A stretch of 64,000 bases of DNA from Escherichia phage PE37: sequence record NC_054929.1; one strand, 5' to 3'. Of this stretch, positions 3,900 through 57,507 are shown piece after piece. The stretch's first letter is position 1; the number at the start of each line of letters is the position of its first letter. The notes under the pieces are model-generated. The model searched no databases. It was not told where the DNA came from and saw nothing but the letters and a program-made list of their open reading frames with translations. The position numbers and the translations under genes were made by a program.

Positions 3900-4112
3900 A
3901 TGCTACAATTAACTGAAAAGCAACTTCGCAATCTTACTGTTCTTCAATTAGATGAAATTCGTAGGGAAGTTGGAAATATCATTTCAGCTTTGCGTCGAGA
4001 AGTATCACTCAACCAATCTCCGGCAGACTATACTAGATTGCGAAATTTTGAAAAATACCTTGATAAAGTTAAGGCCGTGCATCGGCATAAAGTAAATACA
4101 GGACAAAAATGA
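3900..4112 (+). CDS. hypothetical protein (70 aa), rI.1-like by position
   Basis: Track ORF with RBS GGGG upstream. Confidence 0.5.
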
Positions 4113-4124
4113 TAGGAGGCCTTT

Positions 4125-4418
4125 ATGGCCTTAAAAGCAACGGCACTATTTGCCATGCTAGGATTAGCGTTTGCTTTATCTCCACCGATTGAAGCGAATG
4201 TCGATCCTCATTTTGATAAATTTATGGAATCTGGCATTAGACATGTTTATATGCTTTTTGAAAATAAAAGCGTAGAATCATCTGAACAGTTCTATAGTTT
4301 TATGCGAACGACCTATAAAAATGACCCGTGCTCTTCCGATTTTGAATGTATAGAGCGAGGCGCGGAGATGGCACAATCATACGCTAGAATTATGAACATT
4401 AAATTGGAGACTGAATGA
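4125..4418 (+). CDS. rI: RI lysis-inhibition regulator (antiholin), periplasmic
   Basis: 97 aa with signal-anchor; near-identical to recalled T4 RI. Confidence 0.85.
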   Translation: MALKATALFAMLGLAFALSPPIEANVDPHFDKFMESGIRHVYMLFENKSVESSEQFYSFMRTTYKNDPCSSDFECIERGAEMAQSYARIMNIKLETE

Positions 4419-4801
4419 AATTCAGCGACTTTTCACAAAGTGGAAAACCTTCAAAGGCAGATGAATACTTAGGTTTATTAATGGCTGCACAAGCTTATTT
4501 TCATTCTGCACATTTTGAAACTAAAAGTTATGCTAGACACAAAGCATACGATTTTATTTTCTCCGAGTTGCCAGATTTGATTGATAAATTTGGTGAGCAA
4601 TATTTGGGGTATTCTGGTAGAAAATACACACCTTCAATTCCAGATGCCAGTAAACTTCCTACCGACACAATTAAAATGATTGATCGCATACTAGACCAAT
4701 CTAACAGCATTTATAAAGAAATGCCTCCAGCCATCCAAAGCACGATAGATGATATTACTGGAATGTTTTACCAGAGTAAATATCTTCTTTCCCTCGAATA
4801 A
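4415..4801 (+). CDS. hypothetical protein (128 aa), rI.-1-like by position
   Basis: Track ORF, ATGA overlap with rI. Confidence 0.55.
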
Positions 4802-4805
4802 CATT

Positions 4806-4829
4806 AGTCTCCTTCGGGAGACTTTTTTC
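4806..4829 (+). terminator. intrinsic terminator (UUCG-loop hairpin + T-run)
   Basis: agtctcc-ttcg-ggagact followed by tttttt. Confidence 0.65.
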
Positions 4830-4896: not shown

Positions 4897-5085
4897 ATGA
4901 AAATTGAAGCACTTAATCAAGAAGGAAATATCTACGTCATTATTAATGGTGATTTTTTCGTCGACATGGATGAAGTTACTAGTGAAGAACTTGTAGAACT
5001 TCTTAAGAAACGTTATAATATGTGTGATGAAGTTGCAACTCACATGGCGTGTGCAATATTCTCTCTTTCATATGTGGTGGAATAA
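4897..5085 (+). CDS. hypothetical small protein (62 aa)
   Basis: Track ORF 4852..5085 trimmed to ATG 4897 with AGAGGAG RBS. Confidence 0.5.
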
Positions 5086-5288
5086 TGATTAGTATTGAAC
5101 AAGCAGATAAAATTAAGGAATTAGTGGCTTCAATTCGTAAAGCAGATGAAGAGCTGATTGACTTTGATTGGTATTCATCGGGTATTTCTAATAAAGGCAT
5201 TAAAGACTTTGAAACTAAAGTGGATAATGCTATAGAAGCGTTAGATATGTTTCTTGATGAAATTATCGATCATAATACAAGAGTGTAA
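5085..5288 (+). CDS. hypothetical acidic small protein (67 aa)
   Basis: Track ORF 5049..5288 trimmed to ATG 5085 (ATGA overlap). Confidence 0.5.
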   Translation: MISIEQADKIKELVASIRKADEELIDFDWYSSGISNKGIKDFETKVDNAIEALDMFLDEIIDHNTRV

Positions 5289-5290
5289 GT

Positions 5291-5485
5291 ATGCTAACAC
5301 GCGAACAGTTTGAAAAAATCATTAAATTAGCACGTGATATTGAAATAGATTCATATCAATTAGCAGTTGAGCATTGTGAAGGATATTCATACGACGGTAT
5401 AGAAGCAGCTAAAAAGGATTTGGATAAATCTAAAGCTAAGCTAGTTCAATATCTTGAAATGATTAGGTGGAATAATGAAAACTGA
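5291..5485 (+). CDS. hypothetical small protein (64 aa)
   Basis: Track ORF. Confidence 0.5.
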   Translation: MLTREQFEKIIKLARDIEIDSYQLAVEHCEGYSYDGIEAAKKDLDKSKAKLVQYLEMIRWNNEN

Positions 5486-5648
5486 AAAGCAGATGTTTTT
5501 AATGAAACTAATTGAAGAATATGCTAATGCAGTTTCTGACTATGAATGTTCTTCTCGGGAAAGAGGTACAGCTTTCGCCAAAGAAGAAATGAAAATCATG
5601 GTTGATGCTCACACAAAGCTTCAGAATTTTATTGAAAACGTCATTTAA
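5475..5648 (+). CDS. hypothetical small protein (57 aa)
   Basis: Hand-called ORF, start overlaps upstream gene. Confidence 0.4.
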   Translation: MKTEKQMFLMKLIEEYANAVSDYECSSRERGTAFAKEEMKIMVDAHTKLQNFIENVI

Positions 5649-5708: not shown

Positions 5709-5813
5709 ATGAAAGTTTTGTTTGTTATATATGTGATGATTCAATATAATTACCCAATGTTTACTTATAATTTGGTGAATAACATTATTGATATTATTCA
5801 AAGGAGTATGTAA
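5709..5813 (+). CDS. possible small hydrophobic peptide (34 aa)
   Basis: AAGGAG RBS then ATG; very hydrophobic; weak support. Confidence 0.25.
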   Translation: MKVLFVIYVMIQYNYPMFTYNLVNNIIDIIQRSM

Positions 5814-5998
5814 TGACAAGTGAGCAGGCTTTTAAATTAAGAGAATTAATTGAGACGTATAGTAGAGCTGTTCATACATCAACAATTATTGATGAATCAG
5901 CTTTCTCCGGACATGCTAACAAGATTAAATACAAAACTCTTATGGAAGAAGCTAAAGTAAATCTTGATTGTTATATTGAAACTTTAATTGGTAAATAA
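5813..5998 (+). CDS. hypothetical small protein (61 aa)
   Basis: Track ORF with AGGAG RBS. Confidence 0.5.
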   Translation: MTSEQAFKLRELIETYSRAVHTSTIIDESAFSGHANKIKYKTLMEEAKVNLDCYIETLIGK

Positions 5999-5999
5999 T

Positions 6000-6542
6000 A
6001 TGAAAGCTGTAATTGAAACAACTGATTTGTTCGGTAATCTAGTTATCGAAAAACGCGGTAATGTATATGTTCTGACGCAGGAAGACGATAGTATTATTAT
6101 TCTTCCTATGGAACTGGCTGCGATTTTATCTTATGCTCCCTCAAGAGTTACCGGTGTAACTAATATTACAGACGACCTCCAAGTTCGTTTTTATCGTGGC
6201 CTTTACGGCGGTAATATTGAAACTGAATTTATGTGTCTTTCTATCAACAATTGGGCAACATTCGTTGCCAAGGTGAAAGAATTCTTGGAATCTGAAACAG
6301 TCGAAACACCCGAAAAGGCTAAACTTCAATGGGCTAAAGATCGCGGTGCTAGCATTATTAATCCAGTAGCTGCAAATTATACTACGACTTTGGATGTCAA
6401 GACTTCTTATGAAGATGGCGATGTCGTACTTGTTCGCCAAATTGATGATTCTCGAGCACATATTGTCACATTTACCAAAGATGAAGCTATTGCACTAAAG
6501 ACTTATCTTGATTCTGTCATTCCAACTATGATTTCAAAGTGA
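6000..6542 (+). CDS. hypothetical protein (180 aa), paralog of the next ORF
   Basis: Track ORF 5988..6542 trimmed to ATG 6000; C-terminus resembles that of 6549..7070. Confidence 0.6.
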   Translation: MKAVIETTDLFGNLVIEKRGNVYVLTQEDDSIIILPMELAAILSYAPSRVTGVTNITDDLQVRFYRGLYGGNIETEFMCLSINNWATFVAKVKEFLESETVETPEKAKLQWAKDRGASIINPVAANYTTTLDVKTSYEDGDVVLVRQIDDSRAHIVTFTKDEAIALKTYLDSVIPTMISK

Positions 6543-6548
6543 GGAAAT

Positions 6549-7070
6549 ATGTTTATTTCAAGTGGAAGTGGTTTAATTCGTGTTGAATTTAAAAATGACA
6601 TCTTTCTTATTCAAGGAGATGATATTATTAAAATGAGTTATGACGAAATCAAGAAAATTTGTCATGCTCTTGAAAGTCATGGAAAAGTGAACGCTGTTAT
6701 TGATATTGGCGATTTATGGGTGACACTTTATGAAGTATCCGAAGGATTTAACATTGAAGATGAAAATAACATTTTAGCTATTGATAAAAGAACTGATTTG
6801 TTTGATGTATTAAAAGTTTATGAACAGTCAAATGGCGGAAGAAAAGCTGTATTGATTTATCAAAAACCGCATTCATGTGGAACTGCTTCAATCATTTCAA
6901 ATATTGAAGGCGAAGTTGATACTTATATGTGTGTTTTAAAAGCTGGTGGTGACCGTCATCCGGATTTTATTTCTATTCGTCAAAACAATGGAGAAATTTC
7001 ATTGTCAAAATCAGAAGCTGAAGCTATGATTAAGTATTTAACAACCGTTACGCCTTCAATGAAAGGATAG
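6549..7070 (+). CDS. hypothetical protein (173 aa), paralog of the previous ORF
   Basis: Track ORF; shared C-terminal motif E-A-x-A-x-x-K-Y-L-x-x-V-x-P-x-M. Confidence 0.6.
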   Translation: MFISSGSGLIRVEFKNDIFLIQGDDIIKMSYDEIKKICHALESHGKVNAVIDIGDLWVTLYEVSEGFNIEDENNILAIDKRTDLFDVLKVYEQSNGGRKAVLIYQKPHSCGTASIISNIEGEVDTYMCVLKAGGDRHPDFISIRQNNGEISLSKSEAEAMIKYLTTVTPSMKG

Positions 7071-7072
7071 TT

Positions 7073-7534
7073 ATGATTATTAATGAAAACTCTTGGCACT
7101 ATAAATTATTCAAATTGTTTAACGATGAATGGCAACGACCTAAGACACTATGTGCATACTTTTGGTCTATTGTTATCCCTACATTTTTCGTTTCTTTTTT
7201 CGGATGCACTATACTCGCAGGTCTAACTATCATCTGTGCAGAAATCATACAGAAATGGCTTATTTTTGGTAGTTTATGGACTCTTATTCCATCAGCATTT
7301 ATACTTGCTATTTTGCTTGTTTTACTTATTATCGGTTCATTTGTTATTCCTGTACATTTGCATGAAAAATATAAAGATTATAAATGGAAAAAGGATTATG
7401 CTTTACACGTAGAAAATATTGATAGAGCGTATAAAGGTTTACCTCCTATTCAACCCAAGAAATCTATTATCGTCGAATTTTTAAAAGCGCGTAAAGCTAA
7501 AGTATGTCCTGTTATTGAATATAAGGCTGAATGA
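7073..7534 (+). CDS. predicted membrane protein (153 aa, 2-3 TM helices)
   Basis: Track ORF; long hydrophobic stretches. Confidence 0.6.
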   Translation: MIINENSWHYKLFKLFNDEWQRPKTLCAYFWSIVIPTFFVSFFGCTILAGLTIICAEIIQKWLIFGSLWTLIPSAFILAILLVLLIIGSFVIPVHLHEKYKDYKWKKDYALHVENIDRAYKGLPPIQPKKSIIVEFLKARKAKVCPVIEYKAE

Positions 7535-8544
7535 TGAAAACAGTAATGAAAAGTTATTTTGGTAGTCATCTTTATGGAACTTCTACCCCAGAATCTGATG
7601 TAGATTTTAAAGAAATCTTTGTTCCTCCTGCTCGCGATATTCTTATTGGAAATGTCAAAGAGCATATGAGTAAAAACACTAACAACACATCATCTAAAAA
7701 CACTAAAGATGATATTGACCATGAACTATACAGTCTTAAGTATTTCTTTAAATTAGCAGCAGATGGTGAAACTGTAGCGTTAGATATGCTTCACACTCCG
7801 CCTGAACTAGTGGTTAAATCTGATTTGCCTGATGTATGGAAGTTTATTCAAGACAATCGTTCTCGTTTTTATACGACTAACATGAAATCCTACTTAGGAT
7901 ATGTTCGCAAGCAAGCTTCTAAATACGGTGTTAAGGGTTCTCGTTTGGCTGCATTACGTGATGTATTGAAAGTAGTTAATCAAATCCCCGATCAGTGGGT
8001 TGATTACCGAGAAGATGGAACACAAGGACAACGTCGCACTAAAGTTGAAGATATTAAGCATCGTCTTCCAGAAAACGAATTCTGTGAATGGGTGTTCCAT
8101 AATCATGAGAAAACAGGTCCACAAACGTTCTACACTGTATTGGGTCGTAAATATCAGACAACGCTTTCTCTTATTGAGCTTAAGCAGTCTTTGAATAAAC
8201 TTGATGCTGAATATGGTGAACGCGCTCGTAAGGCTGAAGCCAATGAAGGTATTGACTGGAAAGCTCTGAGCCATGCTTGTCGTGGTGGACTCCAACTATT
8301 GGAAATTTACAAAACTGGCGACTTAGTTTATCCACTCCAAGATGCTCCATTTATTCTCGACGTGAAGCTGGGTAAACATCCATTTAAAACTGTTCAAGAG
8401 TTTTTGGAAGATGTGGTCGATCAAGTAGAAGCAGCATCTACTGAAGCTTCTAAGAATGGTATGCCTAAAACAGTAGATATGAGCTTTTGGAATAATTTCC
8501 TCGAACAGGTTTATCTTGAAAACCACCGAAGTTATTATAAATGA
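7531..8544 (+). CDS. Pol-beta-superfamily nucleotidyltransferase-like protein (337 aa)
   Basis: N-terminal GS-x9-SDVD nucleotidyltransferase motif; ATGA overlap with upstream ORF. Confidence 0.6.
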   Translation: MMKTVMKSYFGSHLYGTSTPESDVDFKEIFVPPARDILIGNVKEHMSKNTNNTSSKNTKDDIDHELYSLKYFFKLAADGETVALDMLHTPPELVVKSDLPDVWKFIQDNRSRFYTTNMKSYLGYVRKQASKYGVKGSRLAALRDVLKVVNQIPDQWVDYREDGTQGQRRTKVEDIKHRLPENEFCEWVFHNHEKTGPQTFYTVLGRKYQTTLSLIELKQSLNKLDAEYGERARKAEANEGIDWKALSHACRGGLQLLEIYKTGDLVYPLQDAPFILDVKLGKHPFKTVQEFLEDVVDQVEAASTEASKNGMPKTVDMSFWNNFLEQVYLENHRSYYK

Positions 8545-8546
8545 TA

Positions 8547-8570
8547 GGGAGCCTTCGGGCTCCCTTTTTA
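8547..8570 (+). terminator. intrinsic terminator (UUCG-loop hairpin + T-run)
   Basis: gggagcc-ttcg-ggctccc followed by ttttta. Confidence 0.65.
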
Positions 8571-8593
8571 TTTCAAAAATTTTTCACAAAGTT

Positions 8594-8623
8594 GTTTACA
8601 AGCATAAAGCTTTATGGTACTAT
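8594..8623 (+). promoter_or_regulatory. T4-type early promoter with conserved leader
   Basis: gtttacaagcataaagctttatggtactat, then conserved leader acaactatcaactgatacggatttggagaataaaATG. Confidence 0.6.
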
Positions 8624-8657
8624 ACAACTATCAACTGATACGGATTTGGAGAATAAA

Positions 8658-9626
8658 ATGAAAACTGTAACTATCAATAAGGGTATCTACTTCGGTAAAG
8701 AAATCTCTGGAACTTTTGAGCTCTTAGGCGAATGGTTCCCAGATAATGCTCCGGTAGATGCACAAGGAGATGGTAAAGTTTTTGTTGAAATTGACGGTAA
8801 GCGTCGCGGTGTTTGGGTTTACAAATCAGACATTTCATATGATGGTGTAAAAGTTGAAGAAGTTAAAGAATCGTATGAAGATATGAAAACCCGCATTAAT
8901 AAAAGATTTAATGTTATGGGAATGATGACGAATGGTATTATTAATGGAAATATTCGTTCATTAATTATCTCTGGCGCAGCAGGTATTGGTAAAACGTATT
9001 CTTTAGATAAAGCTTTAAATAAAGCAAATGATATTGGATACATTGAATATAAAAGCATTAATGGTAAAATCTCTGGTATTGGTCTTTATGAGCAGCTTTG
9101 GAATAATCGTGAAGAGAATTCTGTCCTTTTGATTGATGATGTGGATGTTTTCTCTGATATGGACATTCTTAATCTTCTGAAAGCTGCTCTGGACACTGGA
9201 GAGACCCGTAAAGTCTGCTGGAGCACCGCATCTTCTTACTTAGAAGAAAAAGGCATTGAGCGTGAGTTTGAATTTAAAGGAACGATTGTTTTTATCACAA
9301 ACGTTGACATTGACCGCGAATTAGACCGTGGTACTAAACTTGCTCCACATTTACAAGCATTAGTGTCCCGCTCAGTTTATTTGGATTTGGGTGTTCACAC
9401 TAATGAAGAAATTATGGTCAGGGTTGAAGATGTTATTCTTTCAACTGACATGATGCAAAAGCGCGGTCTTTCTGATGAAGAAACTTATAAAGCATTATCA
9501 TGGATGAAAGTCAATGTTAATCGTTTACGCAATGTTTCACTGCGTACTGCTCTTTATCTTGCTGACTTTATTATGACCGACAAAAACGGTTGGGAAGAAA
9601 TTGCTACGGTTACTCTTCTGAAATAA
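8658..9626 (+). CDS. AAA+/P-loop ATPase-like protein (322 aa)
   Basis: Walker A SGAAGIGKT and Walker B VLLIDDVD; track ORF trimmed to ATG after conserved leader. Confidence 0.6.
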   Translation: MKTVTINKGIYFGKEISGTFELLGEWFPDNAPVDAQGDGKVFVEIDGKRRGVWVYKSDISYDGVKVEEVKESYEDMKTRINKRFNVMGMMTNGIINGNIRSLIISGAAGIGKTYSLDKALNKANDIGYIEYKSINGKISGIGLYEQLWNNREENSVLLIDDVDVFSDMDILNLLKAALDTGETRKVCWSTASSYLEEKGIEREFEFKGTIVFITNVDIDRELDRGTKLAPHLQALVSRSVYLDLGVHTNEEIMVRVEDVILSTDMMQKRGLSDEETYKALSWMKVNVNRLRNVSLRTALYLADFIMTDKNGWEEIATVTLLK

Positions 9627-56866: not shown

Positions 56867-57241
56867 ATGTTTAAAATCGGTAAGAAATATCGTGTTCGCG
56901 AAGGTGAAGAAAAGAAATATCTACTTTCTGCTAGTAATAGGAATGGTTCTATTAATGCCGTAATATCTACAAGCGAATTTATCGTTGAAGATATGAAAGG
57001 TCATAATGTTACAATGATTAGTACAGCAACTAGCAGAAATGCTGGAAAAATTCTTCACAGTCTGCGGAGTGAAGTTCTAATTTATGATGAAGAATTTGAC
57101 TTCTTCGAAGAAGTCACTGAAGATTTTGATTTTGAATGCACTATCACTATGAAATCTGGCGACCCTCTTTCTTTTACAGTTAAAGATGAAAGAAGCCGTT
57201 TGAGAATTATTAGTCTCCTTCAAGCCATTAAATTTAAGTGA
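56867..57241 (+). CDS. hypothetical protein (124 aa)
   Basis: Track ORF 56861..57241 trimmed to ATG 56867. Confidence 0.55.
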   Translation: MFKIGKKYRVREGEEKKYLLSASNRNGSINAVISTSEFIVEDMKGHNVTMISTATSRNAGKILHSLRSEVLIYDEEFDFFEEVTEDFDFECTITMKSGDPLSFTVKDERSRLRIISLLQAIKFK

Positions 57242-57507
57242 AAACTATGAAATATATTAATCGTTCTATTGCAGCATTAGTATTAGCAGTATCTTTAGTA
57301 GGATGTACTGATGCTGATAATGCAACTAAAATTTTATCATCAAGTGGTTTTACGAATATTGAAATCACTGGATATAACTGGTTCGGTTGCTCTGAAAATG
57401 ATTTCCAACATACTGGATTTCGTGCTATTGGACCTACTGGGCAGAAAGTAGAAGGAACAGTATGTTCTGGGTTGTTCTTTAAGGATTCAACTATTCGTTT
57501 TAAATAA
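57238..57507 (+). CDS. predicted lipoprotein (89 aa)
   Basis: Signal peptide with lipobox LVGC. Confidence 0.55.
   Translation: MKTMKYINRSIAALVLAVSLVGCTDADNATKILSSSGFTNIEITGYNWFGCSENDFQHTGFRAIGPTGQKVEGTVCSGLFFKDSTIRFK

Follow-up and report, generated by a model that had tools for sequence, protein, structure and literature searches.

The closest described relative of the two genes considered here is mobD.1 of phage T4, whose product, y05I, carries two Pfam domains, PF24449 (T4_y05I_N) and PF24448 (T4_y05I_C), and belongs to PHROG 1502. Our literature search found no functional study of mobD.1/y05I, and mobD.1 is mentioned in a single paper, as the label of an insertion site. In Straboviridae, the family occupies a slot located 3′ of rI/rI.-1 and small mobD.x genes and 5′ of genes coding for a membrane protein and nrdC.11. 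In phage T6 (GenBank MH550421), the gene order is MobD.1, RB32ORF097c (“similar to mobD.1”), RB32ORF096c (“replaces mobD”) and nrdC.11. Since the T6 record describes the equivalent of our second gene in these words, the family and the pair are already known at annotation level, and the finding itself is ordinary, Pfam and PHROGs both listing the family and the T6/RB32 annotation including the second copy. What the present analysis adds is the recognition of T4 as a derived state, of a Pur-alpha-like yet acidic architecture and of a conserved membrane partner.

The 64,000-nucleotide stretch of phage DNA analyzed here (the window) is from a Tequatrovirus and is 99.9% identical to Escherichia phage EO1, and hundreds of Tequatrovirus genomes match the region at 93–98% identity. 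What is the plus strand here is the minus strand of T4, in its early region tk – rI – mobD.x – nrdC.11. An earlier note, made from the sequence alone, had described two similarly sized open reading frames ending in related peptides, and both frames (ORF1, 180 aa; ORF2, 173 aa) and both peptides are indeed present, the two frames being neighbors in the variable stretch of early genes that extends from rI to nrdC.11. The features of the locus are as follows.

5813..5998, plus strand: 61-aa DUF7438 gene directly 5′ of ORF1 (Pfam PF24219, E = 1.7e-14)
6000..6542, plus strand: ORF1, 180 aa, ATG 6000 to TGA 6542; mobD.1 slot, MobD.1/y05I family
6009–6299, plus strand: ORF1 N domain, aa 4–100 (PF24449)
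6321–6530, plus strand: ORF1 C domain, aa 108–177 (PF24448)
6408..6567, plus strand: segment 89% identical to T4 DNA (blastn, window versus T4); last 45 codons of ORF1, ribosome-binding site and first 6 codons of ORF2
6471..6539, plus strand: ORF1 C-terminal family motif, FTKDEAIALKTYLDSVIPTMISK, where conservation within the family alignments is highest
6541..6551, plus strand: GAGGA ribosome-binding site, then the ORF2 ATG (read from the sequence); overlaps the ORF1 stop codon
6549..7070, plus strand: ORF2, 173 aa, ATG 6549 to TAG 7070; second, deeply diverged MobD.1/y05I member
6552–6833, plus strand: ORF2 N domain, aa 2–95 (PF24449)
6852–7061, plus strand: ORF2 C domain, aa 102–171 (PF24448)
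7002..7067, plus strand: ORF2 C-terminal family motif, LSKSEAEAMIKYLTTVTPSMKG (BLASTP, family alignments)
7073..7534, plus strand: ORF3, 153-aa small membrane protein (PHROG 944 “membrane protein”, E = 2e-50)
7531..8544, plus strand: nrdC.11 nucleotidyltransferase, RlaP-like (Pfam PF10127 RlaP, E = 3.3e-11)

The genes are tightly packed. The stop codon of the DUF7438 gene lies 1 nt ahead of the ORF1 ATG, ORF2 and ORF3 are separated by 2 nt, and the ORF3 stop overlaps the nrdC.11 start (ATGA). The gap of 6 nt between ORF1 and ORF2 suggests that their translation may be coupled. Terminator-like hairpins were detected only at 4806–4823 and 8546–8565, and nrdC.11 is the last gene of the apparent transcription unit that includes ORF1, ORF2 and ORF3. 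A promoter scan returned 20 σ70-like sites as compared with 16.5 ± 4.1 in shuffled sequences; this is no excess, and no promoter is claimed.

Relationship between ORF1 and ORF2

Residues 12–177 of ORF1 align with residues 8–171 of ORF2 at 28% identity over 173 columns (BLASTP, E = 5e-7). The Smith–Waterman score of the pair was 86, as compared with 29.9 ± 4.9 for shuffled sequences (z = 11.5), and none of 2000 shuffles reached it. One could suppose that the similarity is limited to the C-terminal 20 residues or is an effect of chance or composition, and the low overall identity is the one point in favor of this reading. The last 25 residues alone scored 45 versus 16.4 ± 3.7, a value reached by one of 2000 shuffles. 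However, with these residues removed from both proteins the score was still 58 versus 28.1 ± 4.6 (z = 6.5, 0 of 2000 shuffles), which rules out a similarity confined to the C-terminus, and the N domains of ORF1 and ORF2 each match PF24449 independently at E values of the order of 1e-31 or below. We therefore consider the C-terminal-only or chance reading extremely improbable. The similarity extends over the full length of both proteins, far above chance, and their common ancestry is firmly supported.

Both proteins exceed the Pfam gathering scores of both y05I domains (24.9 bits for PF24449 and 27 bits for PF24448). ORF1 matched PF24449 with E = 2.9e-31 (108.5 bits) and PF24448 with E = 5.5e-17 (62.3 bits); the corresponding values for ORF2 were 2.2e-34 (118.5 bits) and 9.1e-23 (80.8 bits). 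Matches to PHROG 1502 had E values of 1.8e-67 (ORF1) and 4.3e-67 (ORF2). Both Pfam domains of T4 MobD.1 are matched end to end by each of the two proteins. ORF1 is 48% identical to T4 MobD.1 and sits in the same slot, after the mobD.2 and DUF7438 genes and 5′ of nrdC.11, but is a mosaic allele whose N part is closer to Mosigvirus; ORF2 is 28% identical to T4 MobD.1, and its own counterpart is absent from T4, where mobD stands in its place. ORF1 and ORF2 both belong to the T4 MobD.1 (y05I) family, within which they diverged long ago.

The shared C-terminal motif, which the earlier note had pointed out, is present in both proteins but is not special to the pair. All of the family has it as a signature, [FL][TS]KxEAxALxxYL[NT][ST]VIP[ST]M, located at the end of PF24448, and no other block is as well conserved in any of the family alignments. 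The ORF1 version is FTKDEAIALKTYLDSVIPTM and that of ORF2 is LSKSEAEAMIKYLTTVTPSM, with T in place of I168. The family is small: when 1.84 billion representative proteins were searched with a profile, 28 clusters (50% identity) were retrieved at E ≤ 1e-3, comprising full-length proteins of 173–196 aa and stand-alone C-domain proteins of 69–87 aa, and the latter carry the signature as well. The profile was needed for this purpose, since a single-sequence search with ORF2 (word index) found just 13 proteins. All named family members that we encountered come from T4-like phages, and a Foldseek search against viral models returned family members only.

History of the locus in T-even phages

Comparison with T4, T2 and T6, which had been put forward as a check on the pair, revealed that it is intact in T6, frameshifted in T2 and, in T4, deprived of ORF2, which is replaced by mobD. 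In T6/RB32, which has the same gene order as the window, RB32ORF097c is 97% identical to ORF2 and RB32ORF096c is 92% identical to ORF3. In slot 1, T6 carries an allele of the T4 type with 51% identity to ORF1; there is otherwise no substantial difference from the window.

T4 DNA is homologous to the window up to position 5824 (96%), in the segment 6408–6567 (89%) and from 7530 on (95%; 94.7% DNA identity in the nrdC.11 region), as determined by blastn. The T4 gene mobD, which codes for an HNH homing endonuclease, replaces window positions 6568–7529 exactly, i.e., ORF2 and ORF3. T4 retains the GAGGA ribosome-binding site of ORF2, its ATG and first six codons (MFISSG); this remnant opens a 23-codon ORF whose TGA overlaps the mobD ATG. 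T4 mobD was found in just 47 phage records, none of them below 99% identity, whereas of 484 phage records that matched ORF2, 431 have it at 90% identity or more. Judging from this distribution, the T4 arrangement is derived and arose recently, when mobD took the place of ORF2 and ORF3. The common Tequatrovirus arrangement is MobD.1, its paralogue and the membrane protein, and the reference phage is the derived exception; since mobD erased two of the genes, T4-based studies cannot see the module.

We also considered ORF2 as a decaying redundant copy. We rejected this reading, since ORF2 is intact and 93–100% conserved in the 431 records.

In T2, all three genes are present and all have frameshifting deletions of 1–2 bp: −2 and −1 in mobD.1, −1 and −2 in ORF2, and −2 at the start of ORF3. 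An in-frame deletion of 9 bp is also present in T2 mobD.1. These data come from two T2 records that show no difference over 1600 bases and are possibly not independent of each other.

Phages of the Mosigvirus, Gaprivervirus and Dhakavirus genera have one family gene (of the slot-1 type), followed by the membrane protein gene and nrdC.11. In a neighbor-joining tree, ORF2-type proteins (from the window, T6, P0003 and P0010) form a clade with 100% bootstrap support that branches outside the MobD.1 genes found in slot 1 of Tequatrovirus and Mosigvirus as well as outside the Dhakavirus/Gaprivervirus clade. ORF1 groups with Mosigvirus and T4-type MobD.1, while ORF2 groups with P0010, the sole family gene of a single-copy phage; orthologues in other genomes are thus nearer to each of the two than they are to each other. 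The phage in question is represented by a metagenomic contig (L009) with ca. 81% DNA identity to Tequatrovirus, whose slot holds an ORF2-type gene only, 57% identical to ORF2 at the protein level. In the family alignment, identity between ORF1 and ORF2 is 29% of the aligned columns, as compared with 33–36% between slot-1 orthologues of different genera. Since the ORF2 clade is deep, the identity of the pair is no higher than that of the orthologues and a relative with an ORF2-type gene only exists, the split between ORF1 and ORF2 is old.

The earlier note had proposed a local duplication followed by divergence. The common ancestry implied by this proposal stands; the pair could, however, have originated in either of two ways, of which duplication is one, and the event is not recent. 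A tandem duplication within this phage lineage, with one copy then diverging fast, would account for two adjacent genes of similar length on the same strand with the same domain order, and tandem family copies are also present in Gelderlandvirus SEA1, so that tandem duplication recurs. However, no DNA similarity is left between the copies beyond the level of global alignments of AT-rich sequences, and the protein identity of ca. 29% does not exceed that of slot-1 orthologues across genera. ORF2 branches outside the slot-1 genes of four genera, a gene of its type is the sole copy in a relative, and the high conservation of ORF2 argues against ongoing rapid divergence. A recent origin in situ is, in our view, unlikely.

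The mobD.1 region clearly recombines, as judged from its alleles. ORF1 is a minority, mosaic allele: as compared with T6 MobD.1, residues 1–135 are 39% identical and residues 136–180 are 89% identical, while identity to Mosigvirus is 69% in residues 1–103 and 67% overall to Mosigvirus NBG1. A natural hybrid (P0011, found in six contigs) combines the N part of T6-type MobD.1 with the C part of ORF2 in one gene, and a natural deletion fusion of MobD.1 to NrdC.11 (P0035) also exists. Such a region could have allowed illegitimate or unequal recombination between co-infecting genomes to join two long-diverged orthologues of one slot. Since the metagenomic relative carries the ORF2-type gene only, stacking of alleles in this way is as consistent with the data as duplication in situ. 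Both single-copy types are known (slot-1 in Mosigvirus, Dhakavirus and Gaprivervirus; ORF2 in the metagenomic contig), and the abrupt change in ORF1 about residue 135, together with the hybrid and the fusion, points the same way. On the other hand, the same pattern would be expected if an ancient duplication had been followed by differential loss, the single-copy ORF2 type is known from one contig only, and no donor lineage with a close (>60%) single copy of this type was identified. We regard the joining of diverged alleles as a real but tentative possibility; the present data fit such recombination and an ancient duplication with later losses equally well.

The adjacent membrane protein and the predicted fold

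ORF3 has two hydrophobic segments (approximately aa 25–65 and 62–99), a conserved N-terminus (MIINxNSWH...RPxxLCxYFW) and a basic C-terminal tail (net charge +6). Its homologues are located directly 3′ of a y05I-family gene in all seven lineages examined (six named genera and the metagenomic contig). Identity to ORF3 decreases from 50% in Mosigvirus through 35% in Gaprivervirus, 34% in Dhakavirus and 31% in the metagenomic contig to 29% in Gelderlandvirus SEA1 (E = 8e-21) and 26% in Marfavirus R3_1 (E = 6.5e-10). In the last two phages, the family proteins next to the ORF3 homologue consist of the C domain only, and SEA1 has two such genes in tandem. Since the linkage persists at 26–35% protein identity, it is the best evidence that the family may work together with the ORF3 membrane protein and that the C domain would be the required part. 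This tight, genus-spanning linkage to a membrane protein offers a concrete experimental handle on T-even early genes.

Structure prediction, also suggested earlier, was informative for ORF1. An AlphaFold2 model built with ORF1 as a query and an alignment of 40 sequences had a mean pLDDT of 80.8 (ca. 90 in residues 1–100 and 57–83, a moderate confidence, in the C domain) and a pTM of 0.56; an earlier run with ORF2 as a query and an alignment of five sequences gave a pLDDT of 52.7 and was unusable. The ORF1 model predicts three β-β-β-β-α units, at residues 2–43, 52–100 and 108–173, an arrangement as in Pur-alpha. The C-terminal motif corresponds, in this model, to the last strand (E153–159) and the helix (H160–173) of the third repeat. 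Between repeats I and III, hhalign detected a weak sequence relationship (E = 1.9e-4, probability 48%; VLTQEDD...ELAAIL aligned with VLVRQIDD...DEAIALKTYL), while none was found between repeats I and II or II and III (E = 0.38).

No significant match to the model was obtained when the PDB was searched with Foldseek, the top hits, Ctf4 and sliding clamps (TM < 0.2), being noise; for PUR repeat III, the target-normalized TM was 0.65–0.69 with E values of 0.14–0.2. Members of the PC4-like class (Whirly PBF-2, StWhy2, MRP1/MRP2, Pur-alpha repeat III, Borrelia Pur-alpha, PC4 and the T5 PC4 homologue) ranked among the structural matches. Matches of this class are presumably the reason for the Pfam label “putative transcription factor”. 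Searches of Pfam at E ≤ 1 revealed no PurA, Whirly or other nucleic-acid-binding family for ORF1 or ORF2, and a sequence-profile search of the PDB returned nothing relevant (the sole match was NMD3, E = 0.86).

A review of PC4-like proteins describes Pur-alpha as the only one in which an intramolecular PC4-like domain, formed by repeats I and II, is combined with an intermolecular domain; its repeat III mediates dimerization (PMC7549692). By analogy, repeats I and II of the phage proteins (the Pfam N domain) would pack into one PC4/PUR/Whirly-like domain, and repeat III (the Pfam C domain) would be a single half-domain. Repeat III may then pair with another repeat III, forming a homodimer or an ORF1-ORF2 heterodimer, or may dock onto a partner such as ORF3.

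Possible ligands and role

All family members are acidic (pI 4.1–5.8, net charge −3 to −30), with pI values of 4.7 for ORF1 and 5.0 for ORF2. Acidic or polar residues make up most of the conserved positions (QEDD, GFNIExE, RQxDD), and the only near-invariant basic residues are two lysines. Characterized nucleic-acid binders with a Whirly/PC4-like fold, including phage ChmC, rely on basic clusters (PMC11077065). It is conceivable that ORF1 and ORF2 are classical regulators that bind single-stranded DNA or RNA in the manner of Pur-alpha, Whirly or the jumbo-phage protein ChmC. However, as far as composition goes, the acidity of both proteins and of the family argues against binding, and we find this reading doubtful. 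Since the family is uniformly acidic, a protein ligand, probably a basic one, appears more likely than naked nucleic acid. The combination of a Pur-alpha-like architecture with an acidic surface is a warning against taking the Pfam label literally.

The interpretation that we prefer joins family membership, the Pur-alpha-like fold, pairing or docking of repeat III and a module with ORF3, and we think that, taken as a whole, it is probably correct, with some reserve. According to this model, ORF1, ORF2 and ORF3 would be co-transcribed, and the soluble acidic proteins would act with the membrane protein via the conserved C domain. The variable N domains would supply ligand specificity, so that two paralogues sharing one platform could provide two specificities.

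In T4, MobD.1 has remained intact in the absence of ORF2 and ORF3. This observation counts against the model, though the mobD arrangement is very young.

The T4 block from nrdC.11 to mobD.3 can be deleted in the laboratory (PMC9825161); the module is therefore accessory, and no phenotype anchors the model. One can speculate further that the y05I gene or genes and the adjacent membrane protein form an uncharacterized accessory module conserved across Tevenvirinae, in which the acidic PUR-like proteins would pair via repeat III (as ORF1-ORF2 heterodimers in phages with two copies), the complex would dock at the inner membrane and the fast-evolving N domains would bind or mimic a target, e.g., as a decoy for a host nucleic-acid-binding defense or takeover factor. 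We give this extension little credence. Were it true, the hypervariable slot-1 N domain would reflect an arms race, and genetic studies would have missed the module because mobD removed it from T4 and frameshifts disrupted it in T2.

Three described systems may be compared with the predicted architecture. ChmC of chimalliviruses, which is Whirly-like, is basic, binds RNA and assembles into tetramers and condensates; it comes from another family of phages and has no sequence similarity to ORF1 or ORF2. SsgA/SsgB have a Whirly-like fold and are protein-binding, recruiting FtsZ, but are actinobacterial, trimeric and consist of one domain, and their sequence and genomic context are unrelated to those of ORF1 and ORF2. 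Pur-alpha has no detectable sequence relationship to the phage proteins, the Foldseek matches to it are not significant, and, unlike Pur-alpha, the acidic phage proteins have no basic or aromatic residues conserved in the sheets. Nevertheless, Pur-alpha (PDB 3k44, 5fgo and 8chw) has the same three-repeat layout as that predicted for the phage family, and the single-repeat Pur-alpha protein of Borrelia is paralleled by the stand-alone C-domain relatives of y05I.

Allelic diversity and natural recombinants of the slot-1 gene

Within Tequatrovirus, the slot-1 gene (ORF1, which occupies the mobD.1 slot in PE37) is strikingly polymorphic, as can be seen when window positions 6000-6407 and 6408-6542 are compared. 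Of the 731 records that match ORF1, only 72 do so with at least 90% identity, and in 507 identity is below 60%. Most of these 507 records appear to carry the T4-type allele, which is ~48% identical to ORF1 among the matches listed. Unlike the rest of the slot-1 gene, the last 45 codons of ORF1 (6408-6542) are conserved, as are the diverged paralogue ORF2 and the membrane protein gene ORF3.

Two further proteins from this locus are natural recombinants. P0011, present on six contigs (including L010, positions 4001-4540, L011 and L012), is the product of a single hybrid gene, in which the N part of a T6-type MobD.1 ending in ...CDQNDET is joined to the C part of ORF2, beginning with DTYMCVLKAGG. 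P0035 is a deletion fusion that joins residues 1-50 of MobD.1 to NrdC.11.

The ORF2 locus in T4 and T2

In T4, where the homing endonuclease gene mobD replaces ORF2 and ORF3, a remnant of ORF2 was located:

L001 13206-13277 (T4 record 57205-57276, minus strand): ORF2 remnant ORF of 23 codons, MFISSGTDMCYKCKAKLNETKNQ

This short ORF is opened by ORF2 leftovers, namely, a ribosome-binding site, the ATG and MFISSG. Since its TGA overlaps the ATG of mobD (ATGA), translation of the homing endonuclease is apparently coupled to ORF2's start signals, those of the very gene that mobD destroyed.

In T2 (L003 1940-3481, NC_054931; L007, PV648364; the two records are identical at the locus and may not be independent), five frameshifting deletions of 1-2 bp are spread across three adjacent genes:

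mobD.1: -2, -1
ORF2: -1, -2
ORF3: -2

The two deletions within mobD.1 total -3, as do those within ORF2. The genes flanking this trio are intact.

The nrdC.11-nrdC.10 boundary and product names

Directly after nrdC.11, a perfect, GC-rich 8-bp hairpin is found at window positions 8546-8565; T runs flank it on either side, making it a bidirectional terminator-like site. The start of the mechanically called ORF 8541-9626 falls within this hairpin, and the true start of nrdC.10, which encodes an AAA/STAND-like NTPase, is probably at 8658, matching the annotation of phage EO1.

Misleading product names for genes of this region have spread among phage records. MobD.1 and MobD.4 are labelled [quoted passage not shown] through a clash with a bacterial gene name, nrdC.10 and nrdC.11 "thioredoxin", a DUF7438 gene "helicase loader", and MobD.1-family proteins "thymidine kinase" or "prohead core scaffold protein".

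Tandem arrays in PE37 and SEA1

Just upstream of ORF1, four small genes with Pfam matches to DUF7438 (E 1e-14 to 1e-17; products of 57-67 aa) were identified in the window:

5085-5288: DUF7438 gene
5291-5485: DUF7438 gene
5475-5648: DUF7438 gene
5813-5998: DUF7438 gene

Together they make up a second tandem paralogue array, larger than the ORF1/ORF2 pair. The array is of the mobD.3/.4/.5 and tk.1/.2 type, with five or six copies at related loci.

Salmonella phage SEA1 (Gelderlandvirus) carries two MobD.1-family genes consisting of the C domain only:

L013 3001-3237: C-domain-only gene, 78 aa
L013 3227-3457: C-domain-only gene, 76 aa

These genes are tandem and overlapping, and are followed by a membrane-protein homologue; the second matches the C-domain model PF24448 with E=7.8e-5, which is under the gathering score. 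It thus follows that tandem pairs recur, in shortened form, in the MobD.1 family.
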